A DNA stretch of 18,162 nucleotides, taken from an uncultured delta proteobacterium (GTDB taxonomy: Bacteria > Myxococcota_A > Polyangia > Polyangiales > Polyangiaceae). The stretch is taken from the NCBI GenBank assembly GCA_963763745.1, contig CAVXQJ010000001.1, positions 258,431 to 276,592 of the forward strand, written 5' to 3'. A program made the position numbers and the translations under genes. The notes beneath the pieces are model-generated. The model was not told the origin of the DNA. It made no database searches and worked only from the letters and a program-made list of their open reading frames with translations. This document shows positions 1 through 18,162 of this stretch, one piece after another; the stretch's first letter is position 1, and each line of letters opens with the position of its first letter.

Positions 1-222
1 GCGCTCGGCGCCACGGCCGAAGAGGTCCCGCGCCACGTACACCTTCCGCTCGTGCGCGACTCGGCGGGCGCGCGCATCTCGAAGCGCACGGCGGGCGGAT
101 GCGTTCGCGCGCTCCGCGAAGGCGGCATCAGCGCACGCGAGATCCTCGAAGTGCTCGCGCGTTCGACGGACGGACGCGCGCCGCTCGTCGTGCCCGCGCA
201 GTGGGCTCGGTTTGGCGCTTAG
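1..222 (+). CDS. gluQ: 3' end (last ~73 codons) of a class-I glutamyl-tRNA synthetase family gene, most likely tRNA glutamyl-Q(34) synthetase (GluQRS); 5' end outside the window
   Basis: Frame 1 from nt 1 reads ALGATAEEVPRHVHLPLVRDSAGARISKRTAGGCVRALREGGISAREILEVLARSTDGRAPLVVPAQWARFGA*. HLPL followed by ISKR is the KMSKS-type signature region of GluRS/GluQRS. Only ~45 aa follow the motif, so there is no anticodon-binding domain, which fits GluQRS better than full GluRS. Stop TAG at 220-222. GC3-rich codon usage. Confidence 0.5.
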   Translation, partial: ALGATAEEVPRHVHLPLVRDSAGARISKRTAGGCVRALREGGISAREILEVLARSTDGRAPLVVPAQWARFGA

Positions 223-1406
223 GTTCGCAGCGCGAGCCACACGCCGACGCCGATGGCAGCCGCGATGACGAGCGCCCACACGAACACGGGCACGCCGCGC
301 GAGGTCTCGGGCTGAACGATGATGGATCCGGTCGTCGAATCGAGTGAGCGGCGCGACGGCGGTCTGCTCGAGGCATGCTTCGACGGCTCGGGCGCGGGAA
401 GCGTCGCTGCGTGGACCATGTCGTCGCTGTGCACGCGCACCATGGGCACGCCGCCGCTGGCGCCGGCCGCGACGCGCGATGGCTTCACCGCGTCGACGTC
501 TTCGGGCGTGGTGCGCGCCGCGGTGATCGCGAGCGCCATCGCGGCGGCAGTCGCGTAGCGATCGCGCGGGTCCTTTGCCATCGAGTGCATGACGACGGCT
601 TCGAGCGCAGGTGTGATCTCGCGGTCGGGTGCGCGCTTGCTTGGTGTGTCGGGATCCTGCGTGAGCTGCGCCGTGAGCACGTTGAGCGGCGTGTTCCCCG
701 TGAACGGAACGCCGCCGGTGAGAAGCTCGTAGAGGATGACGCCCACCGCGTAGACGTCGCATCGCGCGTCGAGCTCGTCGCCGCGTGCTTGCTCCGGCGC
801 CATGTACTCCGGCGTCCCGAACACCATGTTGTGCGCGGTGAGGCCCGTCGTTCCGGTGCCGCCGCCGGTCAGGATCTTCGCCATCCCGAAATCGACGACG
901 AACACTTCGTTTCCATTTTCGAGGATCACGTTCGCCGGCTTCAAATCGCGATGAATCACGCCTTGCGCGTGCGCGGACGCGAGCGCCGCACAAACTTGAA
1001 GCGCGATGTCGAGCGCGCGCTCGAGCGCGAGCGGGCCCTCTTCGCGGAGCAGCTGATCGAGCGGAGGACCCTCGATTTTCGGGAGCGCGATGTAGAGCAA
1101 GCTCGCGCCCTCGCCGCGTGGATCGGGGACCTCGCCGAAGTCGAGGATCGCGCCGAGGTGTGGTCCGCTGAGGCGGCTGAGGATCTTGGCTTCGCGCGTG
1201 AAGCGTCCGCGGATTTGTTTGTCGTAGAGGAGGTGACCGTGAATCACCTTGAGGGCGACGCGCTCGGCTTCCACGTTCGCGTCGCCTTCTTTCGGGATCG
1301 TCTTCGCTTCGTAGACGATGCCGGTGCCGCCCTCGCCGAGCACGCCGCACAGCTCGAAATTTCCGATGACGCGACCGGAGCTGAGCGGCGGCGCGGAAGC
1401 GCGCAT
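219..1406 (-). CDS. Hanks-type Ser/Thr protein kinase, C-terminally membrane-anchored (tail-anchored topology)
   Basis: Minus-strand ORF in the frame of 219..3080; the real start is probably the internal ATG at 1404-1406 (MRASAPPLSSGRVIGNFELCGVLGEGGTGIVYEAK...). Motifs: Gly-rich loop GEGGTG, VALK lysine, HRDLKPANVIL catalytic loop, DFGMAK, GTPEYMAPE. These are followed by a Pro/Ser-rich linker and a single C-terminal TM helix VFVWALVIAAAIGVGVWLAL 3 residues before the stop (TAA, overlapping the gluQ stop by 4 nt). The N-terminal 550 aa of the printed 953-aa ORF are Arg-rich, out of register with the LysM gene, and judged non-coding. Confidence 0.85.
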   Translation of the reverse strand: MRASAPPLSSGRVIGNFELCGVLGEGGTGIVYEAKTIPKEGDANVEAERVALKVIHGHLLYDKQIRGRFTREAKILSRLSGPHLGAILDFGEVPDPRGEGASLLYIALPKIEGPPLDQLLREEGPLALERALDIALQVCAALASAHAQGVIHRDLKPANVILENGNEVFVVDFGMAKILTGGGTGTTGLTAHNMVFGTPEYMAPEQARGDELDARCDVYAVGVILYELLTGGVPFTGNTPLNVLTAQLTQDPDTPSKRAPDREITPALEAVVMHSMAKDPRDRYATAAAMALAITAARTTPEDVDAVKPSRVAAGASGGVPMVRVHSDDMVHAATLPAPEPSKHASSRPPSRRSLDSTTGSIIVQPETSRGVPVFVWALVIAAAIGVGVWLALRT

Positions 1407-1453
1407 CGCCTTCGGTGTATCGACCGAAGCCACAACGGCGAAGGTATCCGAAG

Positions 1454-2368
1454 TCAGCGCGACCAGCGACACGCGTCGCGAATTTTCGGCGACACGTAAA
1501 TCGGATCGAGCGTGGCTGAGGTGTCTTGCTTGTGCCAGTCGTCGCAGGCGGTCGTCGCGAGAGCGCTCTGTTCGAGCGCGACGTACGCCTCGACCAGCGC
1601 GCGGTCGATCGACGCGATCTGCGCGCGCGCGAGCTCCGTCTGCGCGAGGAGGCGGTTGCCGCGCGCGACCGCGTCGATGTAGCGACCCGCGCGGACGTCC
1701 GCGAGCAGCATCGGGATCTCGCCGCCCGCCTTCCGCTGCTGCGCCATCGTCGAGCCACCGCTCTCGCGTTTGGCGCGCGTGTCCTCGCCCGCCGCTTCCG
1801 CGCGTCCCACATCGGTGAGGTCGAGGTTCGAAATCGGAACGAGCACGACCTCGCCACGGAGGAGCTTCCAATCTTTCTTCCCGTTGTACGAGTCGATCTC
1901 CCACGCGCGGTTCGCGTCGCCGAGGTAGCGCCGCGCGATGGCGGTCGTCGTGTCGCCTTCGGCGGCGATGTACGTCAGCACGTACGGCACGCGAATTTCT
2001 TGTCCGGGCGAGGGTGCGATCCACGCGAGCGCGTCGTTCACGCGTGCGAGCGCGTCCGCGCGTTTGTCGTCGCCGAGCCATTCGCGCGCGAGGCTCGGCC
2101 ACGTCGCGTGCTCGGCTGCGCGGTGATAGTCGCACGCGGGGATCTGCAGGTGCATGCCGGGCACGATCGCGCTGCCGCCTTGCACGTCGAGCGCGTTCGC
2201 GCCCGCGAGGAGCCCCTCTTTCGTCGCGTCGCCATAGATGTGCTTCGCGATGTCCGCGAGCGACTCTTTCGGCCGAACGACGTGAACGAACGCCTGCGCC
2301 TCGGGCGCGGACGAGGACTCGAGCGCGAGCGCGAGCGCGACGAACGAAAGCGCGTACCTCGGATTCAT
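1454..2368 (-). CDS. Secreted protein with two LysM-like peptidoglycan-binding domains and a C-terminal helical region
   Basis: In the frame of ORF 1454..2575; the likely start is ATG 2366-2368 (MNPRYALSFVALALALESSSAPEAQA, signal peptide). Two LysM-like segments: VHVVRPKESLADIAKHIYGDATKEGLLAGANALDVQGGSAIVPGMHLQIP and IRVPYVLTYIAAEGDTTTAIARRYLGDANRAWEIDSYNGKKDWKLLRGEVVLVPI. It ends 47 nt upstream of the kinase start, so co-transcription is likely. Confidence 0.65.
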   Translation of the reverse strand: MNPRYALSFVALALALESSSAPEAQAFVHVVRPKESLADIAKHIYGDATKEGLLAGANALDVQGGSAIVPGMHLQIPACDYHRAAEHATWPSLAREWLGDDKRADALARVNDALAWIAPSPGQEIRVPYVLTYIAAEGDTTTAIARRYLGDANRAWEIDSYNGKKDWKLLRGEVVLVPISNLDLTDVGRAEAAGEDTRAKRESGGSTMAQQRKAGGEIPMLLADVRAGRYIDAVARGNRLLAQTELARAQIASIDRALVEAYVALEQSALATTACDDWHKQDTSATLDPIYVSPKIRDACRWSR

Positions 2369-2393
2369 GCGCGGGATGATACGGTAGGAGGGA

Positions 2394-3059
2394 ATGAATT
2401 CGGCGGACTTCACCGCACAAGCCGTGCGCCTCCACGATCGATATTTGCTCGAGGTGGTGGAGCCGCTCGGTCTTTGTCCGTGGGCGCGGCGCGCGCGGCT
2501 CGATGGACGAACGCGCCAGCACGTCGTCCTCGACGACGCCGAAGACGCCGCGCGCGCGAACACGACGAAGATCATCGCGACGTGGGCGGCAAACGACGTC
2601 GTCGACGTCGGCTTCGTGATTTTCCCTCGCCTCGAAATCGCTCGCCCCGCGTTCGATCGCTTCGTCGCGAGCGTGACGGAGCACGAGTCGTCGATTCACG
2701 CCGTTGGCTCCGTGCCGTTCGTGATGGCCGCGTTCCATCCACGCGCGCGCGCCGACACGAACACGCCCGAGCGTCTCATCCCGTTTTTGCGGCGCACACC
2801 CGACCCGTGCATTCAGCTCGTGAGGTCGAAGGTGCTCGACGCCGTCCGCGCGAACACGCCGCAAGGCACGAGCTTCGTCGACGCCGCCACGTTCGACTTC
2901 GACGTCGAGGGTAAAAGCGCACGCGACGAAATCCCGCTGCGCGAGCGCATCGCGCGCGCGAACCTCTCCACGATCACGAAGCTCGGTTTGCCCGAGCTCG
3001 AACGCCTCCTCGACGACATCCGCGCCGACCGCGATCGCACGTACGCCGCGCTCACCTGA
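2394..3059 (+). CDS. Conserved hypothetical protein (CPWA-motif family, possibly DUF1415-like)
   Basis: 221-aa ORF with coding-like GC3 bias and no low-complexity Arg runs. Motifs LGLCPWARRARL and FVMAAFHP resemble a small conserved bacterial family I recall with a CPFA/CPWA motif; I cannot verify this without a search. It is divergent from the LysM gene (only 25 nt apart) and its 3' end overlaps the convergent FG-GAP gene by 8 nt. Confidence 0.6.
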   Translation: MNSADFTAQAVRLHDRYLLEVVEPLGLCPWARRARLDGRTRQHVVLDDAEDAARANTTKIIATWAANDVVDVGFVIFPRLEIARPAFDRFVASVTEHESSIHAVGSVPFVMAAFHPRARADTNTPERLIPFLRRTPDPCIQLVRSKVLDAVRANTPQGTSFVDAATFDFDVEGKSARDEIPLRERIARANLSTITKLGLPELERLLDDIRADRDRTYAALT

Positions 3060-4704
3060 ACGTGAACGCACCGCCAGCACCGCCCGCCGAAGCGTTGCTC
3101 GGATCGCCGTTGATGCCCGTCGCGTTGCTTGGGTCGCTCACGCCGCCGACGGCGAGCGCCGCGGCGTTGTTCGTGATCGCAACGCTCAACCCGAAATTGT
3201 CAGCGTGTGCGAACGACGATTTCACGTACGCCGTTTGTTGCCACACGCTCGCGACCGGCGTGAAGGTGTAGACGGCTCCGGCATTCGCGACCGACGTATC
3301 GCCTTGTCCGGGCGACGTGTTGTTGACGCCGGTCGCTGCGCTCGTCTCGCCCGTGCTGCCGACGGCCAGCGTGTTGCCGTCGACCGACAGCGAGACACTC
3401 GTGCCGAAGGCGGCCGATCCGCGTGTGTTTGACGACTTCACGTATGCGGCTTGTGTCCACGTCGAGCCCGCTCGCGTGAAGAGATACGCGGCGCCCGAGT
3501 TGTTCGCGCTCGTGTCGCCTTGTCCGGGGCTCGTGTTGTTCACGCCGGTTGCGCCGCTCGATTCTCCGGAGCTTCCGACGGCGAGCACCGTTCCGCCAAC
3601 GCCACCGAGCGCGACGCTCTTTCCGAAGAGCGCGTTGGTGCGCGTGTTCGACGCTTTGATGTACGCGGTCTGCGACCAGATGCTCGACGACTTCGTGAAG
3701 ACGTACGTCGCGCCCGCGAATGCCGCGGACATGTCGGTCGAGTTGATGCCGACGCCCGTGGCGCCGCTCGCTTCGCCCTCCGAGCCCACCGCGAGCTCGG
3801 TGCCGTCGTTCGAGAGCGCGACGCTCCACCCGAAGCGGCCACCCGCTTGCGTGTTCGAGGGCTTCACGTAGTGGGTCTGGGTCCAGTTGCCGCCGCTGTA
3901 TGCGTAAAGATAGGCCGCACCCGCGAAGGAGAAGTTCGCGTTGGCTGCTCCGCCGGAGCCCGTGGTCACGCCCGTGTCGGACGCCGTCTCGTCGATCGCG
4001 CCAACCGCGGCGGTGTTGCCGTCACCCGACATCGCGACGCTGTAACCGAACTGCGCGCTCTGCTGGATGTTCGATGCCTTGAACGGACCGTCGGTTTGCG
4101 ACCAAGTCTGGCTGAGACCGTTGCCGTTCGCGCTGAAAAAGTAGACAGCGCCCGATCCCACTTGGGTCGTGCTCTCGCCGCGCGCGCCGACGATCATGTG
4201 GCTCCCATCCGACGCTGATGCCGAAGTTCGCATTCGCCGTCGTGTTCGACGCTTTGATGTAGGCGATTTGAGACCACGCGTTGTTCACGCGCGTGAAGAC
4301 GTACACCGCGCCCGCTGCGGACTTGCTCGTGTCGCCTTGACCAGGGTTCGTGTTGTTCACGCCGGTCGCGCCGCTGGTCTCTTGCGACGAGCCGATCGCG
4401 AGCGTGTTGCCATCGGCCGAGATCGCGATGCTCTGTCCGAAGCCCGCGCCGGCGCGTGTGTTCGACGCCTTGATGTAAGCGTCGGCGACCGAAACGTGCG
4501 GTGGGGGTGCGGCGTCGGCGTCACCGCCGTCGTTGTTGCTTGATCCGTCCGTGCCCGAGTCGCTCGTCGTGACATCGGCGAGTGCCGTGTCCGAGGTTGC
4601 GTCGGCAGCGGCGTCAGGACCGGGCACGACACTCGTGTCGCCGACGCAGGCGCTCAGCGCACCACCAACAACCACGAGCGAAAGAAGAAATCGTTTGAAC
4701 GCCA
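3052..4704 (-). CDS. FG-GAP/integrin-alpha-like beta-propeller repeat lipoprotein (single gene split by an apparent 1-nt frameshift near 4215-4225; printed as ORFs 4022..4759 and 3052..4233)
   Basis: The start ATG at 4702-4704 is preceded by a perfect SD AGGAGG (4709-4714 on minus). It opens MAFKRFLLSLVVVGGALSAC with lipobox LSAC. It is followed by an Asp/Ser-rich linker, then at least 7 repeats of about 70 aa with consensus GAAYVFT..WSQ.AYIKASNT....FG.SVA.S.DGNTLAVGS..E.SGATGVNNTSPGQGDTS. The repeat phase continues exactly across the frame change: ..ANANFGISV in one frame, SDGSHMIVGARGE.. in the next. Nucleotide-level internal repeats occur at about 3290, 3520 and 4330. Confidence 0.75.
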
Positions 4705-4708
4705 TCCG

Positions 4709-4714
4709 TCCTCC
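4709..4714 (-). promoter_or_regulatory. Shine-Dalgarno AGGAGG for the FG-GAP lipoprotein gene
   Basis: On the minus strand aggaggACGGatg; a perfect SD 4 nt from the ATG at 4704. The printed (frameshifted) kinase ORF would read through it, which supports the corrected kinase stop at 4746. Confidence 0.6.
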
Positions 4715-6096
4715 TAAGTCACGAGCCAGCATCGACACCTTAACATCATTTCTCCGCAACGCTCGCGTCGCGGTCGCGATCGCCGCCGACGTCCATCGTC
4801 ACGTCGAGCGTCTCCGTCGCGCCCGCGGTGATCGACACGCGGCGCGTTTGAGGCGGCGCGGTCGGGTGCGTGAATTTCGACGAAGTGCACGCCGGGCGCG
4901 AGCGGGATCGCGCGCGCGACCGGCGTGACGGCTGCGCGCTGACCATCGATTGCGACCTCCGCCCACGGCGTCGCGAGGACGCGCAAGAAACCCGGCTTCG
5001 CGGGAAGAAGCGGACCCTCGGTCGCGGCGGACGCTTGCTCCGCGCTGCGATCGGTCGCGTGGATCACGGCGAGCGCGGACACGAGCGCCGCACCGAAGAG
5101 CGCGAAGCTCCATGGCGACATCGTCAGCGGACGGCGCGGCTCGCTCGCGCGCACGAGCGACGGCACTTCGCCCGACACCAAACGCGCCGACGCGAGCGCG
5201 CCTCGCACGAGCTGCCGCATCGGAAGCTCGGTGCGCGAACGCACGAACTCGGTGAGCTCCTCGGCGACCACGTCCGCGGACATCGGCCTGTCCGCTGGAT
5301 GCTTCTCGATGCAGCGCATGACGACGCGCTCGAGCGCGCGCGGAACGTCCGGCGCGCGCTGGCGCAGCTGCACGGCCGGGCTCGTTCGCGACGCGTGCGC
5401 GGGCGCGCGCTTCTCGCCGGGTCGATCGAACGGACGCACGCCGCACAAGAGTTGATACAAGACGACGCCGAGCGAGAAGAGATCGCTCGGCGCGCTCGCC
5501 GCTTCGCCGAGCAGCTGCTCCGGCGCCATGTACGCGGGCGTTCCGAACGCGCCGGGCTGCGCAGTTCCTCGTGCCGGCGTCTCGTTGTCGAACGCGGGGA
5601 TTGGCTCGTCCGCCGAAGGAAGCCGCTCGCGATGCGCGATGCTGAAGTCGACGATCTTCACCTCGCCTTGTCGCGACAAGATCACGTTCGCCGGTTTCAC
5701 GTCGCGATGAATCACGCCGCGCTCGTGCGCGTGCGCGAGCCCCTCCGCCACCGCCGCGCCGATCGCCGCGACCATCTCGGCGCGCAGCTTCGGCTTCTTC
5801 GCGAGGAGCTCCGAGAGCGAGAAGCCCGAGATGTACTCGAGCACGAGATACATCTGGGTCTCCGACTTCACGTAATCGAGGAGCAAGACGATGTTCGGAT
5901 GCGACAGTCCCGAGAGCACACGCGCTTCGCGTTCGAGCTGCGTCGCGAACGTCGATGACGGCGGGATCGTTCCCTTCAACGCTTTGATCGCGACCTTGCG
6001 ACCAAGCGGCTCTTGCGACGCGAGATACACCGTGGCGATCGCGCCCGAGCCGAGCTCGGAGATCGTTTCGTAGCTTCCGAATCGCGGCAGCTCCAT
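4714..6096 (-). CDS. Hanks-type Ser/Thr protein kinase with one TM helix and a C-terminal extracytoplasmic PEGA domain (3' end frameshifted; the corrected stop would be at 4746)
   Basis: MELPRFGSYETISELGSGAIATVY.., VAIKALK, HRDVKPANVIL, DFS (DFG variant), GTPAYMAPE. TM helix WSFALFGAALVSALAVIHA, then a PEGA-like segment PGFLRVLATPWAEVAIDGQRAAVTPVARAIPLAPGVHFVEI. At about 4873-4880 (aattt) the PEGA consensus continues in the +1 frame (THPTAPPQTRRVSITAGATETLDVTMDVGG.. stop at 4746), while the printed frame runs into an Arg-rich tail that overlaps the SD of the next gene. The start ATG (6094-6096) overlaps the gpmI stop in ATGA. Confidence 0.85.
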   Translation of the reverse strand: MELPRFGSYETISELGSGAIATVYLASQEPLGRKVAIKALKGTIPPSSTFATQLEREARVLSGLSHPNIVLLLDYVKSETQMYLVLEYISGFSLSELLAKKPKLRAEMVAAIGAAVAEGLAHAHERGVIHRDVKPANVILSRQGEVKIVDFSIAHRERLPSADEPIPAFDNETPARGTAQPGAFGTPAYMAPEQLLGEAASAPSDLFSLGVVLYQLLCGVRPFDRPGEKRAPAHASRTSPAVQLRQRAPDVPRALERVVMRCIEKHPADRPMSADVVAEELTEFVRSRTELPMRQLVRGALASARLVSGEVPSLVRASEPRRPLTMSPWSFALFGAALVSALAVIHATDRSAEQASAATEGPLLPAKPGFLRVLATPWAEVAIDGQRAAVTPVARAIPLAPGVHFVEIHAPDRAASNAPRVDHRGRDGDARRDDGRRRRSRPRRERCGEMMLRCRCWLVT

Positions 6097-7632
6097 CAGC
6101 GTGTGAGCAGCGGAATGCCCGTCATCGCGGCGGGCTGAGGAAGACCGAGGAGCGCGAGCATCGTCGGCGCGACGTCGCAGATGCGTCCGCCGCTTCGAAC
6201 GTGCGCGCCCGCGTCGGCGTCGTTGACGTAGAGGAGCGGCACGGGGTTCAGCGTGTGCGCGGTGTGCGGCTCGCCCGTCGCGGGATCTTTCATGAGCTCG
6301 CAGTTTCCGTGATCCGCCGTGATGATCACCGCGCCGCCTTTCTTCCGCGCTGCATCGACGATCGCGCCCACTTGCGCATCGACTGCTTCGACCGCGTGAA
6401 TCGCCGCGTCGAGCACGCCCGTGTGGCCCACCATGTCCGGGTTCGCGAAATTCACGAGCACGAAATCGAATCGATCCGATTCGATCGCGCGAACGACCGC
6501 TTCACCAACGCCCTTTGCGCTCATCTCGGGTTTCTTGTCGTACGTCGCGACGTCCTTCGGCGATGGGATCATCGCGCGCTCTTCGCCCGCGAACGGCTCC
6601 TCGCGACCGCCGTTGAAGAAGTACGTCACGTGCGCGTATTTCTCGGTCTCCGCGCAACGGAACTGCGTGAGCCCGGCGCGCGCAATCACTTCGGGGAAGA
6701 TGTCCGTGAACGTCTGTTTCGGAAACGCGATGGGCAAACCGAACGACGCGTCGTACGTCGTCATGCATCCATAGCGACCCGCGAACGGCGCGCCGGCATG
6801 GGGTGCGCGCGGGAAGCCGTCGAACTTTTCGATCGCGAGAGCGCGCGTGAGCTCGCGCGCACGGTCTGGACGAAAGTTGCAGTGCTGCGCGGAGTCCTTT
6901 CCGATCTCGACCCCCGCGTAATCGCCGACGACGAACGGCTCGACGAACTCGTCCGTCTTGCCCGCAGCGATCGACGCTTCGATTCCAGAAACCGCGCTCT
7001 CGTGGCGCGGGCCGAGCGCGAAGACGATCGCGTCGAATGCTTTTTGAACGCGCTCCCAACGGTTGTCGCGGTCCATCGCCCAGTAGCGCCCGCTCACCGT
7101 TCCGATTCGACCTTTTCCCGCGAGATGCTTCTCGAGCTCGGCGATGTACCTCGGCGCCGTCTTCGGTTGCACGTCGCGCCCGTCCAAAAATGCATGCATG
7201 ATGCAACTAACGCCGCGCGCGTGCGCCGCGTCGATGACGGCCATGATTTGCGTGAGGAGCGAGTGGACGCCGCCGTCGGAGCAGAGGCCGAAGAGGTGGA
7301 GCTTTCCGCCGCTCGCCTTGGCTTGCTCGATGCGATCCGAGAGGACCGCGTTCTTGCCGAGCGAGCCATCGAACACCGCGTTGTCGATGCGCGAGATGTC
7401 CATCATCGCGATGCGACCCGCGCCGAAGTTCAAGTGGCCGACTTCGCTGTTTCCCATTGGCCCGGCGGGAGGCCGACGTCGGGCCCGCTCGTGCCGATGA
7501 GCCCGTGCGGATTTTCGAGAAGAGCTCGGCGAGGCGCGGCGCCTTCGCGAGTCGCACGGCGTTGTCGGCCGCCTCGGCGCGCTCGCCGAAGCCGTCCAAA
7601 ATGACGAGCACGAGTGGCCGCGGACGTTTCAT
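6096..7632 (-). CDS. gpmI: 2,3-bisphosphoglycerate-independent phosphoglycerate mutase (iPGM); reading frame broken twice near the 5' end by 1-nt homopolymer deletions
   Basis: The N-terminus MKRPRPLVLVILDGFGERAEAADNAVRLAKAPRLAELFSK (ATG 7630-7632) is in the frame of ORF 7207..8733. The next conserved block NPHGLIGTSGPDVGLPPGQ is in a second frame. MGNSEVGHLNFGAGRIAMMD onwards is in the third frame (ORF 6096..7457) and runs through canonical iPGM motifs to the C-terminus (ITADHGNCE..). The junctions fall at the T-runs gattttcg (7511-7518) and cattgg (7455-7460). Confidence 0.9.
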
Positions 7633-7658
7633 CGCGGCGAAAATATCATCAATCGGCA

Positions 7659-8764
7659 TCAAAACGGGAGGACGTCGGTTGGTATCGCGCGCGACTCGAA
7701 CGTTCCGTCGCCGAGCTGACCGCTTTGGTTGCTGCCCCAGCACACGATGCGCTCGTCCGAGAGAATGGCGCACGAATGAAACGAGCCGCACGCGATGGCG
7801 GTCGCGCCGCTCGCAATCGCAGTGACGGGCTTGGTCGACGAAGCGGTCGTCCCATCGCCGAGCTGGAACGTGCTGTTCGCGCCGAAGCAAACGACGGCGC
7901 CCGTCGCGAGGAGCGCGCACGTGTGCGAATCGCCCGCGCAAACGTCCACGACTCCGCTCGTCAAGCTTCCGTCGCCGAGCTGGCCGGCTGCGTCGAATCC
8001 GAAGCATGTGAGCGCGCCGGCCGCGACGATGCACGTGTGTGTGCCGCCGAGCGCGATCTTCGACGGCGCGCTCGCGTTCGTTTTCGTCGGCACACAAACG
8101 GTCGACGTCTGGCCGTCGCCGAGCTTTCCGCTGTCGTCGTCTCCCCAGCACATGAGGCCGCTCGTCGTGATCGCGCACGCATCGAACTCGAGACCGAGCG
8201 CGATCGATGTCGCGCCCGTGACGCCGTTCGCGACCGGCGTGAGCGCGTTCGTGATGTCGTTGTTTCCGAGCGCGCAATATCCGCCCTGACCGAAGCAGCG
8301 CACGCTTCCATCGAGCGCCACCGCGCACGTCGTTCCGTAACCCGCCGCGATCGCCGCAGACGGCGGGAGTGCGATGGGCGTGGTGATCGCGTGCGACGCG
8401 TTCGTGCCGTCGCCGAGCTGCCCGAATGCGTTTTCGCCGAAGCAATACGTCGCGCCGGCCGACGTGATCGCGCACGCGTGATCGACGCCGACGGAGAGCG
8501 CCGTCACCGCGGCGAGCGAAAACGCGACGGGCTTCGGTTGATTTCCTCCGAAGAGTTGACCGAAGCACGCGAGCGCGCCGCTCGAACGCACCGCGCAAGT
8601 CGTCGCCGCGCCGGCGCTGACGAGCGGCGTTGCGTTCGGCGGGCGAGCCGCTTCTGCGGAGAGCGCGTCGTGCGACGCGTCTTGTGCCCCATCGAGCTCG
8701 GTGCGCGATCCACACGCGACGAACAGGACGCACACGCCGACGTGCGCGGCTCTCGATTCTGACA
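7659..8764 (-). CDS. RCC1-repeat (regulator of chromosome condensation-like) beta-propeller lipoprotein
   Basis: ORF 7659..8852; the preferred start is GTG 8762-8764 (VSESRAAHVGVCVLFVACGS, lipobox-like FVAC), because ATG 8852 would overlap the divergent rnhA. There are about seven RCC1 repeats with the hallmark C(F/W)G.N..GQLGDG (CFGENAFGQLGDG, CWGDDDSGKLGDG, CFGFDAAGQLGDG, CFGANSTFQLGDG, CWGSNQSGQLGDG). It ends 26 nt upstream of gpmI. Confidence 0.8.
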
Positions 8765-8781
8765 CTCCACCATAGTATCCA

Positions 8782-9453
8782 ATGTCGATGCCGTGGAAGG
8801 AGGCCTCGCTACGCGGACAGCGCGTGCTCGCGCGCGTGAAGGCCGACGGCACGCTCGACGAAAAAGAGAGCCGCGTGGAGATTCGCTATCGCGAAACCGA
8901 TGGTCGCGCGTACCACGCGCGCGCGGCGAACCTCGTGGTCGCCAAGGACGCGAAGGTGATGTCCGACGACACGTGCGCCCCCGCGGACAAACCGAAGGCG
9001 AAGACGGCCAAAGCGCCCGAAATAAACCATGCAGACTACAAGGATTCGTGGATCGCCTACACGGACGGCGCGTGCACGGGAAATCCCGGGCCCGCGGGGA
9101 GCGGGACGATCGTCATCGCGCCCAGCGGAAAGATCGCCGAGTCGTATGCGTACCTCGGCGAAGGGACGAACAACGTCGCCGAGCTGACGGCGATCGAGAA
9201 GGCGCTCGAGCGAACGCCGCGCGAGGAGTCGCTCGTGCTCCACACCGACAGCCAGTACGCGATCGGCGTTCTCACGAAGGGATGGAAGGCGAAGGCGAAC
9301 ACCGACCTCATCGCGCGCATTCGCAAAGCGCTCCACGGCCGGCGCGTGCGGTTCGTGTATGTGCCGGGTCACGCGGGCGTTCCGATGAACGAGCGCGCCG
9401 ACGAGCTCGCGCGCGAAGCGATCAAGACGCGCTCGAGCTCGCGCGCGGAGTGA
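8782..9453 (+). CDS. rnhA: Ribonuclease HI with an atypical ~90-aa N-terminal extension
   Basis: The C-terminal 140 aa match the RNase H fold signature: IAYTDGACTGNPGPAGSG, GTNNVAELTAI, LHTDSQYAIGVLTKGWKAKAN, VPGHAGVPMNERADELAREA (the DEDD catalytic residues are in place). The N-terminal region MSMPWKEASLRGQRVLARVKADGTLDEKESRVEIRYRETDGRAYHARAANLV is coding-like but does not resemble the canonical hybrid-binding domain. Confidence 0.9.
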   Translation: MSMPWKEASLRGQRVLARVKADGTLDEKESRVEIRYRETDGRAYHARAANLVVAKDAKVMSDDTCAPADKPKAKTAKAPEINHADYKDSWIAYTDGACTGNPGPAGSGTIVIAPSGKIAESYAYLGEGTNNVAELTAIEKALERTPREESLVLHTDSQYAIGVLTKGWKAKANTDLIARIRKALHGRRVRFVYVPGHAGVPMNERADELAREAIKTRSSSRAE

Positions 9454-11309: not shown

Positions 11310-13234
11310 CACCGCCTCCCGAGGCGAGCAAGACGACCTTCAAGGAGAAGGTGCGCGCGCTCGGCTCGCGCGTGTGGGCGAAGCTCCGCGGTTGGTGCGT
11401 GACGTACTTCATCGACGACCCGCTGACGTTCGTCGCCGCGCTCGTTCCGCTGTGTTTCTTGTCGATTGCACTCTACACGCGTCACCCGCGGACGAATTTC
11501 ATCTTCGACGAACAAGAGGCGCTGCTCGCGAATCCGTACGTGCGCTCCGTCGCCGATCCGCAATCGCATCTGCATTGGCTCGACGCATTCCGCCGCGACT
11601 TTTGGGGGCTCCCGCACGATCGCACGATCGGATCGTATCGGCCGCTTCCGGATCTCGTGTGGCGCGCGTTCTGGGGCGTCGGCGCGCGCGAGCAGAGCCC
11701 GTTCTTGCATCACTGGGTGAACGTGCTCCTCCACGGCGTGAACGGCGCGCTCGTGACGGTGATCGGGCTTCGCCTGACGAAGGATCGCTTGATCGCGTGG
11801 CTCGCGGGCGGCGTGTTCGTCGCGGCGGCGGTCGTGACGGAAGCGGTGAGCGGCGTCGTCGGTCTCGCGGACGTGCTCGGCGCGCTCGGCGCGCTCCTCG
11901 CGCTGTGCTCGCTCGCGCTTCCGATGTGGGCGATGCCGTTCGCGGTCGCCGCATCGACGCTCTTCGGTTTGTACTCGAAGGAGAGCGCGCTCTGCATCGT
12001 GCCGATGGTGCCGTTCGCGGCGCTCTTCGTCTCGGACCTCACGCACCCGAAGCGCCCGATGCGCTGGGTGCGTTGCGCGCTCGCGGCGATCGCCACGACG
12101 GCCGCGTTCGTCTTCTACGTGGAGCAACGCCGCCGCATGTTCCCCGCGACGCTCCCGCCGGATCTCTCCATCGAAGCAAACCTCGGCAAACCGTGGGCGA
12201 CGCGCTTCTACCACTCTCTCCTTCGTTGGTATGCGCAGCCGATCTTGCCGAAGGATCCGCTGAACAACCCGCTCGTCGACGCGACGGGCCCGCAGCGCGT
12301 CGCGGCAGGTTTCCGCGTGTACTCGCGCGGCATCGGCGAAGTTCTCTTTCCGTATCACTTGTCCGGCGACTACTCGGCGCCGCAAGAACCCATTCCGTCG
12401 CGGCTCGTTTTTCCGGAGAGCATCACGGGCGCGCTCGCGCTGCTCGGCCCGATCGTTGGCGCGCCGATTTTGGGCTGGATGGGCGTGCGAAAGAAGAAGC
12501 CGCTCTACGCGATCGCGGCCGTCGCGATGATGTGGATCGTCGTCAGTTATTTTCCGGTGTCGAACATTCCCATCGTGCTGCCGACGGTGCGCGCGGAGCG
12601 CTTCTGGTACTTCCCGGTGATCGGCACGAGCTTCTTGCTCGCGTTCTTCTTCGCGTGGGTGCTTCGCAGGACGCGCGCGCGAAACCGCGCGTGGCTCGGC
12701 GTCGCCATCGTCGCGGGATTTTTTCTGTGGCAATCGATCGCCGCGCGCGCGCACGCCAACGACTACACCGACGATTTGGTTTTCTGGAACGCGACGCGCT
12801 TCGCCGTTCCGAACAGCGCGAAGGCGCACCTCAATTACTCCGTGATGAAAGGCGCGCGCGGCGATCTCGAAGAGCGCCGAAAAGCCAACGTGCGCGCTCT
12901 CGAGCTCGCCCCGAATTGGCCCATGGCGAACATCTACCTCGGCGACACGCTCTGCCGCATGCACCGCGCGCAAGAAGCCTGGCCGCACTACAAACGCGGC
13001 TTCGAGCTCGCGCCCGGCGATCCGAATTTGATTTCGCTCGCGCTCCAATGCTTGTGGGACGAAAAATATTATTCGACCGTCGCCGACGAGCTCGCTGAGA
13101 TGGGCGCGGCGCAGCCCGGCTCGTGGCTCGACTTCTTGCAGCGCGACATGTCCGACCACGGCGAAGAGCACAACGGCGTCGATCCGAAATACCGCCCGCG
13201 CGGATACAACGAAGGCCCGAAGAACGAAAACTGA
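11306..13234 (+). CDS. Polytopic membrane GT-C glycosyltransferase-like protein with C-terminal TPR repeats (PMT/TMTC-like, DUF1736-type)
   Basis: In the frame of ORF 11051..13234, but the portion upstream of 11306 overlaps the SDR gene and is Arg-rich. The proposed start is GTG 11306-11308, which overlaps the SDR stop in GTGA. About 10 predicted TM helices. The first loop carries FIFDEQEALLANPYV (the DE motif used by GT-C PMT-type enzymes) and FWG....YRPL (a DUF1736/TMTC-like motif). C-terminal TPR-like helices (ANVRALELAPNWPMANIYLGDTLCRMHRAQEAWPHYKRGFELAPGDPN). Confidence 0.7.
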   Translation: MTPPPEASKTTFKEKVRALGSRVWAKLRGWCVTYFIDDPLTFVAALVPLCFLSIALYTRHPRTNFIFDEQEALLANPYVRSVADPQSHLHWLDAFRRDFWGLPHDRTIGSYRPLPDLVWRAFWGVGAREQSPFLHHWVNVLLHGVNGALVTVIGLRLTKDRLIAWLAGGVFVAAAVVTEAVSGVVGLADVLGALGALLALCSLALPMWAMPFAVAASTLFGLYSKESALCIVPMVPFAALFVSDLTHPKRPMRWVRCALAAIATTAAFVFYVEQRRRMFPATLPPDLSIEANLGKPWATRFYHSLLRWYAQPILPKDPLNNPLVDATGPQRVAAGFRVYSRGIGEVLFPYHLSGDYSAPQEPIPSRLVFPESITGALALLGPIVGAPILGWMGVRKKKPLYAIAAVAMMWIVVSYFPVSNIPIVLPTVRAERFWYFPVIGTSFLLAFFFAWVLRRTRARNRAWLGVAIVAGFFLWQSIAARAHANDYTDDLVFWNATRFAVPNSAKAHLNYSVMKGARGDLEERRKANVRALELAPNWPMANIYLGDTLCRMHRAQEAWPHYKRGFELAPGDPNLISLALQCLWDEKYYSTVADELAEMGAAQPGSWLDFLQRDMSDHGEEHNGVDPKYRPRGYNEGPKNEN

Positions 13235-14804: not shown

Positions 14805-15431
14805 ATGAAAAAGCTCTTCCTCTTCGCCGCTCCGATCGCCGCGCTTGCGTGCTTCGCGTGCTTCGTGTCGCCGCCATCTTCGAGCACGTCGTCCACCACG
14901 ACGGGTCAGGCGCTCGCGACGTCGCTCGCGTGCGCGTCGTGTCATGGCTCCGACTTCTCGGGATCGGAATCGCCGATCGCGCCGGGCGTCTACGCCGCCA
15001 ACCTCACGCCCGACATCGCGACGGGTCTCGGCTCGTGGAGCGACGACGACATCACGCGCGCGATTCGCACCGGTCAAGACGATCAAGACAGCGCGCTGTG
15101 CGCGAAGATGCCGCGCTTCTCCACGCTCGCGGATGATCAAGCGAGCGCGCTCGTCGCGTACCTGCGATCGCTTCCAGCGATCGCACACGACATCCCGGAG
15201 AGCGAGTGCGACGCGCCACCCGATCTCGACGACGGAGGACCCGGCGACGGCGGCGTCGACATCGTCACGGACGACGCGCCTTCGTGCGAAGGCTTCGCCG
15301 ACCCCAACACGACGGCGACGTGTCACGCGTGCTCGAGCGGCCAAGCGTCTTGTCAGCACAACGGCTGCTTCGGCGGATACTTCTGCGACCTAGCAGCGCT
15401 GCATTGCGTCCCAAAGCCGAGCGGATGTTGA
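14805..15431 (+). CDS. Secreted or lipoprotein c-type cytochrome (class I) with a C-terminal Cys-rich extension
   Basis: Signal peptide MKKLFLFAAPIAALAC. Heme-binding CASCH (CXXCH). Met ligand in MPRF. Class I cytochrome c tail LADDQASALVAYLRSLPA. A C-terminal ~70 aa follows with 8 Cys (SCEGF..TCHACSSGQASCQHNGCFGGYFC..HCVPKPSGC). Confidence 0.8.
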   Translation: MKKLFLFAAPIAALACFACFVSPPSSSTSSTTTGQALATSLACASCHGSDFSGSESPIAPGVYAANLTPDIATGLGSWSDDDITRAIRTGQDDQDSALCAKMPRFSTLADDQASALVAYLRSLPAIAHDIPESECDAPPDLDDGGPGDGGVDIVTDDAPSCEGFADPNTTATCHACSSGQASCQHNGCFGGYFCDLAALHCVPKPSGC

Positions 15432-15443
15432 GACGCGCTGGAC

Positions 15444-15463
15444 GTGAACGCGTGCGCGTTCAC
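15444..15463. promoter_or_regulatory. 20-bp inverted repeat GTGAACGCG-TG-CGCGTTCAC between the cytochrome c stop and the czcA start
   Basis: Perfect 9-bp arms with a 2-nt spacer, 13 nt after the cytochrome c stop and 68 nt before the czcA ATG. It is followed by CCCCGAAAAAATAGGG, an A-run rather than a T-run, so it is not a canonical plus-strand intrinsic terminator. It could be a regulator binding site for the efflux gene or an atypical terminator. Confidence 0.3.
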
Positions 15464-15530
15464 CCCGAAAAAATAGGGCGATTTGCGATCGCGCGACTCG
15501 GCGTTCTAGTTGCATGTAGCGCGCCAGCTC

Positions 15531-18162
15531 ATGATCCAACGCCTCGTCGGAATCGCGGTGCGATCTCCGTTCGTCGTTCTCGTCTGTGCGCTCGTGCTCG
15601 TGTGCGCGGGGCTCTTCGCGTTTCGGCAGCTCGACATCGAAGCGTATCCAAATCCCGTCCCGCCGATGGTCGAGGTCATCACGCAGCCACAAGGTTGGAG
15701 CGCCGATGAAGTCGAACGTTACGTCACAGTTCCACTCGAGGTCGGCCTCGCGGGAATGCCCGGGCTCGATCACGTTCGCAGCCAATCGCTGTTCGGTTTG
15801 TCCGACGTGAAGTGCTACTTCGCGTGGGGCACCGACTACGAGAAGGCGCGGCAGGAAGTCATCAACCGGATCGGCTTCGTCAACATGCCGACGGGCGTGC
15901 AACCGGGGCTCTCGCCGTGGAACGCGATCGGTGAAGTGTTCCGCTACACCGTCGAAGGCGACGGCTACGATCTCAAAGAGCTCAAAGCCCAAGAAGACTG
16001 GGTGCTCGAGCGGCAGTTCAAGCAGGCGAAGGGCGTCATCGACGTCACGAGCTTCGGCGGCGAGACGAAGGAGTACCACGTCGACGTCGACCCGTTCCGC
16101 TTGAAGGGCCACAACGTGAACCTCACGCAGCTCATGACTGCGATTCAAGCGGCGAACCAGAACGTCGGCGGGCAGCGGCTCTTCATCGGCGAGCAGAGCT
16201 ACGACGTGCGCGGCATCGGCCTCTTCAACAACCGGCACGACATCGAGAACGTCGTCGTGCTCGAGCAAAAGGGAACGGCCGTGCGCGTCCACGACGTCGC
16301 CGACATCGAAGTCGGCCACGCGCCGCGCCTCGGAAGAATCGGCAAGGACGATCGCGCCGACGTCGTACAGGGCATCGTCCTCATGCGCTACGGCGGCGAG
16401 ACGGAGCCGACGCTCCAAGCGGTGCACGCGCGCGTGAAGACGATCGAAGAACGCCATCTCCTCCCGCCCGGCATGCGCATCGTCCCGTATTACGACCGCG
16501 GCGATCTCGTCCACGTGACGACGCACACGGTGCTCGAGAACCTCCTCCTCGGCATGGGGCTCGTGAGCGTCGTGCTTCTCTTGTTCCTCGGGCACGCGCG
16601 CGCCGCGCTCATCACCGCGCTGAACATTCCGATGGCGCTGATGATCGCGTTCTGCGGGCTCGTCGGAACGGGAACGTCGGCGAACCTCATCTCGCTCGGC
16701 GCGGTCGACTTCGGCATCGTCGTCGATTCGACCGTCATCATGATGGAGAACATTTTCCGTCACGTCGGCGCGCACGGGCGCGGATCGATCCAGGATCGCG
16801 TGCTCGCGGCCGCGCGCGAAGTGGCGACGCCCATGACGTTCTCGACGCTCATCATCGGCGTCGCGTTCTTGCCGCTCTTCACGATGACGGGCGTCTCCGG
16901 CGTCATCTTCGCGCCGATGGCGCGCACGTACGCGCTCGCGATCGGCGGCGCGATCATCCTCGCCCTCACGCTGACACCCGTCTTGGCGAGCAAGCTCCTT
17001 CCCGCGACGGCCGAGGAAAAAGAAAATTTCCTCATGCGCGCGATCCACCGCATCTATCGCCCCGCGCTCACCAAAGTCCTCGCGAAGCCGCGCCTCTCGC
17101 TCGGCCTCGGCATGCTCCCGCTCGTCTTCTGCATCGCGCTCTTTCCGTTTCTCGGAGGCGAGTTCATGCCGAAGCTCGAAGAAGGAAACTTCTGGATCCG
17201 CGCGACGCTCCCGATGAGCGTCAACCTCGATCAATCGGCGAAGTACGTCGAGCGCATGCGCGGGATCTTGCGGCAGTGCCCGGAGATCGTGACGGTCGTC
17301 TCGCAAGTGGGCCGCCCCGACGACGGCACCGACGTGAGCGGCTTCGGCAACATCGAGTTCTTCGCGCCGCTGAAATCGTTCGATCAGTGGCCGCGCGGCA
17401 TGACGAAAGAGAAGCTCACCGACGATTTGAACAAGCAGCTCTCGTCCGCGTTTCCGGACGTCGTCTTCAACTTCTCGCAGATGATCAGCGACAACGTCGA
17501 AGAGGCGGTGTCGGGCGTGAAGGGCGAGAACTCCGTCAAAGTGTTCGGCCCGCGCATCGCCGACAACGAGAAGATCGCCGAGCAGATGTCGAACATCCTC
17601 GAGAAGGTGCGCGGCATCCACGATCTCGGAACGTTCCACTCGCTCGGCCAGCCGAGCATCCACATCGTCCCCGATCGGCTCGCGTGCGCGCGCTACGGGC
17701 TCAACACGGGCGATGTCGGCAACGTGATTCAAGCGGCGATCGGCGGGCGCGCCGCGACGCAGGTGTTCGAAGGCGAGAAGCGCTTCGACGTCGTCGTTCG
17801 ATGGAAGGAACCGTATCGATCGTCGGTGGAGGCGATTCGCGAGATCAACGTCGCGACGCCCGACGGCTCGTCGATCCCACTCGGACAAATCGCGAAGATC
17901 ACGATCGAGGACGGCGCGAGCGTCGTGTATCGCGAGGACGGCCTTCGCTACACGCCCGTGAAATTTTCGGTGCGCGGTCGCGACCTCGCGAGCACGATCG
18001 AGGAAGCGAAGAGGCGCATCGACGACGAGGTCCACCTCCCATACGACACGCACATCGAGTGGAGCGGCGAGATCAACGAGCTGAAAGAAGCGCAGCACGG
18101 CTCCTCGTCATCGTCAGAGCACGAGTTGAACGAAGAACGGAGAACGGTTACCGTATTGCTCG
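15531..18162 (+). CDS. czcA: CusA/CzcA-family heavy-metal efflux RND transporter permease (5' 877 codons; continues beyond the window; the last ~55 nt are frameshifted or non-native)
   Basis: It is absent from the ORF track because there is no in-window stop. The ATG at 15531 opens MIQRLVGIAVRSPFVVLVCALVLVCAGLFAFRQLDIEAYPNPVPPMVEVITQPQGWSADEVERYVTVPLEVGLAGMPGLDHVRSQSLFGLSDVKCYFAWGTDYEKARQEV.., which is collinear with CzcA/CusA. Further motifs: GAVDFGIVVDSTVIMMENIFRH, the periplasmic loops, and EWSGEINELKEAQ. The expected RLLVIVP then appears in a shifted frame and the final 46 nt do not encode the expected TM helix. The antisense 902-aa ORF 15390..18098 is spurious. Confidence 0.9.
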   Translation, partial: MIQRLVGIAVRSPFVVLVCALVLVCAGLFAFRQLDIEAYPNPVPPMVEVITQPQGWSADEVERYVTVPLEVGLAGMPGLDHVRSQSLFGLSDVKCYFAWGTDYEKARQEVINRIGFVNMPTGVQPGLSPWNAIGEVFRYTVEGDGYDLKELKAQEDWVLERQFKQAKGVIDVTSFGGETKEYHVDVDPFRLKGHNVNLTQLMTAIQAANQNVGGQRLFIGEQSYDVRGIGLFNNRHDIENVVVLEQKGTAVRVHDVADIEVGHAPRLGRIGKDDRADVVQGIVLMRYGGETEPTLQAVHARVKTIEERHLLPPGMRIVPYYDRGDLVHVTTHTVLENLLLGMGLVSVVLLLFLGHARAALITALNIPMALMIAFCGLVGTGTSANLISLGAVDFGIVVDSTVIMMENIFRHVGAHGRGSIQDRVLAAAREVATPMTFSTLIIGVAFLPLFTMTGVSGVIFAPMARTYALAIGGAIILALTLTPVLASKLLPATAEEKENFLMRAIHRIYRPALTKVLAKPRLSLGLGMLPLVFCIALFPFLGGEFMPKLEEGNFWIRATLPMSVNLDQSAKYVERMRGILRQCPEIVTVVSQVGRPDDGTDVSGFGNIEFFAPLKSFDQWPRGMTKEKLTDDLNKQLSSAFPDVVFNFSQMISDNVEEAVSGVKGENSVKVFGPRIADNEKIAEQMSNILEKVRGIHDLGTFHSLGQPSIHIVPDRLACARYGLNTGDVGNVIQAAIGGRAATQVFEGEKRFDVVVRWKEPYRSSVEAIREINVATPDGSSIPLGQIAKITIEDGASVVYREDGLRYTPVKFSVRGRDLASTIEEAKRRIDDEVHLPYDTHIEWSGEINELKEAQHGSSSSSEHELNEERRTVTVLL
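18117..18162. other. Non-native 46-nt terminal tail, lower GC, resembling nanopore sequencing adapter sequence
   Basis: agagcacgagttgaacgaagaacggagaacggttaccgtattgctcg. The last 15 nt, GTTACCGTATTGCT, are close to the 3' end of the ONT ligation adapter as I recall it (..TTCGTTCAGTTACGTATTGCT). The upstream TGAACGAAG matches the reverse complement of the same adapter (CTGAACGAAGT). The czcA reading frame and conservation stop exactly here. Confidence 0.4.

Follow-up and report, generated by a model that had tools for sequence, protein, structure and literature searches.

A gpmI gene split over three reading frames in a Polyangiaceae metagenome contig, probably by consensus indel errors

By translating the minus strand in all three frames, we confirmed that gpmI, the gene for 2,3-bisphosphoglycerate-independent phosphoglycerate mutase (iPGM), has its coding sequence (7632..6096, minus strand) split over three reading frames in the 18,162-nt stretch of DNA analysed here, which we call the window. 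Most likely these breaks are indel errors in the consensus of a Nanopore assembly, an artefact and not biology. The preliminary description of this DNA had already ascribed them to sequencing or consensus indels, and this is the best-supported reading, favored by a gpmI that, once repaired, shows no decay, by three further broken genes and by an adapter-like tail at the right end of the window. The reasoning by which it had been reached, from compensating deletions at T-homopolymers, is in part wrong.

The interrupted gpmI gene and its repair

Codons 1-40 of gpmI (MKRPRPLVLVILDGFGER...LAELFSK, with the native ATG start at 7632-7630 and the ILDGFG motif inside) occupy 7513..7632 of the minus strand in the first frame. 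The block that follows, (N)PHGLIGTSGPDVGLPPGQ at 7458-7512 on the same strand, lies in a frame of its own, distinct from those of both flanking blocks: it opens with a remnant of codon 41 ('AT', 7511..7512, minus strand), the first 1-nt deletion site, continues with codons 42-58 (PHGLIGTSGPDVGLPPG; 7460..7510, minus strand) in the second frame and closes with a remnant of codon 59, for Gln59 ('CA', 7458..7459, minus strand), the second 1-nt deletion site, where the wobble base is missing. Codons 60-512 and the stop follow in the third frame (6096..7457, minus strand), as a 453-aa ORF that starts with MGNSEVGH and is identical to the database protein P0002, which comes from a contig of 276,592 bp.

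As given, gpmI is not a single uninterrupted frame and has two interruptions within 55 nt. With a single base added at each site (7512/7513 and 7458/7459), the gene encodes a full-length iPGM of 512 aa that scores 632.8 bits against TIGR01307 (cutoff 330.65; profile 2-504 of 504) and aligns with solved iPGMs without a gap across both junctions (5vpu, 6e-145; 1ejj, 6.5e-138). This bears out the earlier proposal that one T restored in a T4 run and one in a TT would recreate the enzyme. For the sequences named at these sites, 'cattgg' does lie at 7455-7460 of the plus strand, and 'gattttcg' lies at 7510-7517 and not, as first given, at 7511-7518. The two deletions had also been called compensating, which they are not: both are 1-nt losses of the same sign (net -2), and since neither compensates the other, three frames are in use.

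The repaired gene carries the expected motifs. GNSEVGH, which is invariant in 119/119 homologues, is present in the window, and its serine is presumably the catalytic residue, as published structures lead us to expect. ILDGFG is encoded in the first-frame segment, and its Asp corresponds in the alignment to D12 of the Bacillus enzyme of known structure; we take this Asp of the N-terminal ILDGxG to be a metal ligand, in keeping with established structural work. At its other end, the gpmI stop codon TGA shares 1 nt with the ATG of the kinase gene (TGATG, at 6096), and the same overlap is found in L001, one of two related MAG loci with which the window is collinear (L001, ENA contig_60035_np1212; L002, MFD01872.bin.1.328). 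The nearest intact GpmI proteins come from related Polyangiaceae MAGs and are 509 aa long and 88-89% identical. As for an intact copy from the same strain, the protein collection contains nothing above 89% identity and GTDB species representatives reach 89% at best, and a search of JGI metagenomes with the exact-flank pattern around the first deletion site gave 0 matches.

Our data argue against any long history of relaxed selection on this gene. Across 119 homologues, 226 columns reach a conservation of 97% or higher; the repaired GpmI deviates at none of them (0/226), compared with a median of 1 deviation in the other sequences. By the Nei-Gojobori method, dN/dS in gpmI was 0.119 between the window and L001, 0.127 between the window and L002 and 0.139 between L001 and L002, values which, with the conservation test, exclude long-standing relaxation while being insensitive to very recent inactivation. 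Codons 1-60, which lie before and between the two lesions, follow the same pattern. Neither a raised dN/dS nor a loss of conserved residues, by which a pseudogene under relaxed selection is recognized, was found in the repaired gene, which, judged from its sequence, shows no decay.

The gene content around gpmI differs in several places from that of the related loci. Within the collinear part, L001 and L002 lack the FG-GAP_2 lipoprotein gene (3052-4705) and the gene for an RCC1-like protein (7659-8852). The latter, an RCC1-repeat (RLD-type) gene whose product is probably a lipoprotein, separates gpmI from the RNase H gene in the window, with gpmI on the same strand 26 nt downstream of it; in L001 and L002, without the RCC1-repeat gene, gpmI and RNase H are divergent neighbors. 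Conversely, at 216-225 the window is missing an AraC-type regulator and a 248-aa protein, which occupy 15766-17600 in L001, between a tRNA-synthetase-like gene and the first kinase. We also observed an in-frame deletion of eight codons at ~11490, in a plus-strand gene (11363-13234) whose conserved 623-aa product matches no Pfam family: both relatives read RIENGHLVMTNF where the window reads R--------TNF.

The two deletion sites

The preliminary description had presented both indels as losses from T-homopolymers, the T4 run within 'gattttcg' being at 7512-7515 and the TT at 7457-7458 of the plus strand. At the first site, an alignment with 11 related loci shows that related DNA reads AAA TAT/TAC CC, that is, a Tyr codon, and the corresponding residue column among 119 homologues holds Y in 105, F in 10, H in 3, C in 1 and N in 0. 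Most likely a TAT codon lost a T there (on the plus strand, an A between 7512 and 7513), and the most economical history, and most likely the true one, is a change from AAATATCC to AAAATCC by loss of this T. Because the relatives carry TAT/TAC and the column is dominated by Tyr and never holds N, the T4 run at 7512-7515 is probably in large part a product of the deletion and not a shortened T5. At the second site, related DNA reads CAG ATG in 10 of 11 loci and CAA ATG in the remaining one, and the window is without the wobble base of Gln59. A contraction is thus unlikely at the first site, in view of the relatives' TAT/TAC; the comparison favors neither outcome at the second, whose TT hardly amounts to a homopolymer. 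The reading frame is unbroken at both sites in all of the relatives (11/11 DNA loci and 119/119 proteins).

Every coding homopolymer of at least 5 nt in the window is in frame (16/16), including three within gpmI itself (C5 at 6911, T5 at 7041 and A5 at 7186). The frame breaks sit at runs of no more than 4 nt, and the errors in long homopolymers that one might look for were not found. Plain homopolymer-length miscalling does not fit the gpmI lesions.

Further frame breaks and an adapter-like tail

Breaks in reading frame are not restricted to gpmI. The Ser/Thr kinase gene that it overlaps (4746..6096, minus strand) has an extra nucleotide at ~4873-4877, in the C-terminal PEGA-like region: the gene strand reads GTCGAAATTC, where comparison with L001 and L002 gives HFV-T-FTHP in the relatives. 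With this nucleotide removed, the kinase has 449 aa and a stop at 4746-4748; as given, its ORF overruns to 4714 and the last ~40 residues are swapped for an Arg-rich nonsense tail, the region so lost giving a weak PEGA match in the L001 orthologue. The adjacent FG-GAP_2 repeat lipoprotein gene (3052..4705, minus strand) is broken at ~4209-4211 (gene strand AGCGTC/G/GATGG). Here the window reads FGISV/DG where full-length relatives have FGxxVALSSDG, a net change of either -11 nt or +1 nt; the related proteins are continuous (P0122, 563 aa; P0124, 569 aa), and the source's own gene call in the window is the truncated P0121, of 381 aa. The fifth break is in a CzcA/CusA-like RND transporter gene at the right end (15531..18115, plus strand; ACR_tran profile 3-862 of 1021), for which the retrieved L001 and L002 loci have no counterpart. 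After a single frame of ~855 residues, 1 nt is lost at 18096-18097, so that ..EINELKEAQ and RLLVIV (18098-18115) stand in different frames where relatives read EINELKEAxxRLxxIVPLTLL; homology ends at 18115.

The window thus holds five frame breaks in 4 of its 15 genes. Given a true rate of 3% broken genes, a figure that we assume from general knowledge of free-living bacteria, at least 4 broken genes among 15 would arise with a probability of 8e-4. Four of the five breaks fall within 3.3 kb (4209 to 7515), for which p is ~0.02 under a uniform error rate. A check for frame jumps by tblastn, which the preliminary description had recommended, was run with the called genes of L001 and found all syntenic genes in a single frame except gpmI and the adjoining kinase. 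Called genes served as queries, stop-to-stop ORFs being uninformative in DNA of 66% GC, in which each of the six frames stays open. Many of the long ORFs in the window are antisense shadows typical of such DNA and are non-genic by GC3 phase and homology, for example a 902-aa ORF opposite the RND gene (15390-18098, minus strand), a 953-aa ORF (219..3080) and a 508-aa ORF (7207..8733). A search of the other syntenic genes for hidden pairs of compensated frameshifts found none, the runs of mismatches being variable regions or in-frame indels.

Two hexamers recur at the breaks on the gene strand: TCGAAA at 4875 (kinase) and 7513 (first gpmI site), and ATGGGA at 4203 (FG-GAP_2 gene) and 7452 (second gpmI site). 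A common motif as a hint of methylation-linked basecalling error was considered and set aside as too weak, with p = 0.038 by simulation for a pattern noticed post hoc, and with an FG-GAP_2 break that is perhaps an 11-nt deletion.

The last ~45 nt of the window (18116-18162) are not RND-gene sequence and read AGAGCACGAGTTGAACGAAGAACGGAGAACGGTTACCGTATTGCTCG. Within this tail, 18121..18160 on the plus strand resembles the junction of Oxford Nanopore (ONT) ligation adapters, a read-end adapter followed by a read-start adapter, taking the adapter sequences from the Porechop_ABI preprint (10.1101/2022.07.07.499093). The local score of this segment against the junction was 16, whereas the best of 2,579 control segments taken from the window reached 13.5, and 18147-18160 matches the terminal 13 nt of the start adapter at 13 of 13 positions with one extra C. 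We infer from this adapter-like tail, and from it only, that the contig was built from Nanopore ligation reads. At its right end the window probably reaches the end of the contig or a chimeric-read junction, and either would explain the break in the RND gene 20 nt upstream of the tail.

Both of the closest genomes, L001 and L002, stem from long-read MAG work, and L002 bears the name of a Microflora Danica (MFD) isolate. The long-read MAGs of that project are Nanopore-only Flye assemblies that received a single round of Medaka polishing, explicitly against indel errors, and its authors tie errors in long homopolymers to lower coding density (PMC12313526). That the window itself comes from Microflora Danica is only a guess.

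Consensus error and the competing readings

A model that would unify our data is that gpmI in this uncultured myxobacterium of Polyangiaceae type is most likely an ordinary gene, intact and functional, with a 1-nt overlap (TGATG) with the Ser/Thr kinase gene downstream of it. The single-base gaps (7512/7513 and 7458/7459) would be deletion errors left uncorrected in the consensus sequence when a metagenome contig was made from ONT ligation-library reads, and one process would also have produced the breaks in the FG-GAP_2 (~4210), kinase (~4875) and RND (~18096) genes. Four of the five breaks fall in a stretch that reaches from one lineage-specific insertion as far as the border of a second, where reads may have been locally thin or strain-mixed, and the fifth would owe its place, 20 nt from adapter-like sequence, to a probable contig end. 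Two marks of an artefact are indeed seen here, several isolated small indels in well-conserved genes and an assembly that, by its adapter-junction-like tail, appears to derive from Nanopore reads. Error rather than mutation as the origin of the indels is nonetheless a conclusion drawn from these patterns, and some points speak against it. The indels avoid long homopolymers, and the loss at the first gpmI site is probably that of a lone T between A's; the FG-GAP_2 break may be an 11-nt deletion and not a 1-nt error; and the clustering in 3.3 kb would call for an extra assumption, namely a local drop in coverage or a mixture of strains.

The same points can be turned in favor of genuine and very recent pseudogenisation, in which real indels would have inactivated gpmI, the neighboring kinase and the FG-GAP_2 gene, with mutase activity supplied by gpmA or a second gpmI elsewhere. 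Avoidance of long homopolymers, clustering in three adjacent genes (p ~0.02) and a possible 11-nt deletion would all suit this account, as would the presence of the breaks in the deposited sequence and the fact that the database holds just the truncated P0002 and P0121. Redundant glycolytic genes are, moreover, frequent in large myxobacterial genomes. We nevertheless consider it unlikely. There is no surplus of amino-acid change, as none of the 226 conserved columns deviates and dN/dS is that of intact orthologues; if real decay brought ~10 substitutions per indel, gpmI should by a rough estimate show ~6 changes at conserved codons, and it shows 0. Two independent lesions 55 nt apart, together with breaks in 3 of 14 other genes, are far above the usual density of pseudogenes. 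The adapter-like tail points to an assembly not cleaned of raw Nanopore signal, and the fifth break lies right beside it. That a real burst of small non-homopolymer indels between 4209 and 7515 has just silenced the FG-GAP_2 lipoprotein, the Ser/Thr kinase and gpmI in a wild Polyangiaceae population, with the mutase supplied elsewhere in the genome, seems to us a long shot. If the lesions were real, they would be a modest example of the recent loss of a redundant glycolytic gene.

It is highly improbable that the 453-aa ORF from the ATG at 7457 represents a real product, a mutase that is shortened at its N-terminus and yet functional. The frame is open, begins with ATG and is reported by gene callers (P0002), but its product would be without residues 1-59 and hence without the conserved ILDGFG with its D12-aligned Asp, a segment retained in 119/119 homologues. 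Furthermore, the 175 nt upstream still encode the N-terminal segment perfectly, at a dN/dS of 0.12-0.13, and no Shine-Dalgarno-like sequence precedes 7457. Programmed recoding, in which the ribosome or RNA polymerase would slip twice by -1 each to give full-length GpmI, agrees with two same-sign shifts that restore the protein and with the mRNA A4 run at the first site but is scarcely credible and effectively refuted, as the sites (TCG AAA ATC and GGC CAA TGG) contain no X XXY YYZ slippery heptamer, -1 re-pairing would offer GAA to tRNA-Lys and CCA to tRNA-Gln, runs of A4 and A2 fall short of what transcriptional slippage requires, frameshifts occur in 0/11 related DNA loci and 0/119 homologous proteins, and a search of the window for recoding signals found no Rfam matches, tRNAs, local repeats or notable local structure.

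Consensus indel error, as the preferred reading, has consequences beyond gpmI. The preliminary description had warned that the gpmI lesions cast doubt on every other pseudogene call in the window, and the three further genes with isolated frame breaks justify this warning: since 4 of 15 genes carry such breaks, pseudogene calls made by frame cannot be trusted in the window, and probably not in the whole contig. The truncated products P0002 (453 aa) and P0121 (381 aa) have already entered public protein collections through gene callers.

Most likely, then, gpmI in this contig is an ordinary gene damaged by assembly errors, with no biological novelty. In relation to known systems, the repaired gene is a full-length member of the GpmI/iPGM family (TIGR01307; PF06415 iPGM_N and PF01676 Metalloenzyme), whose conserved columns it keeps throughout, GNSEVGH and ILDGFG included, and from which it differs, as written, by its two interruptions. 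Bacterial frameshift pseudogenes likewise have small indels that disrupt the frame, but the window departs from them in that selection is not relaxed, conserved residues are retained and too many adjacent genes are affected for a free-living bacterium. The indel errors of Nanopore-only MAGs of the Flye/Medaka type (PMC12313526) differ from the breaks described here in that no long homopolymers are hit in the window and four of the five breaks are clustered, and resemble them in the isolated 1-nt indels, the truncated gene calls and the adapter-like sequence that the window contains.
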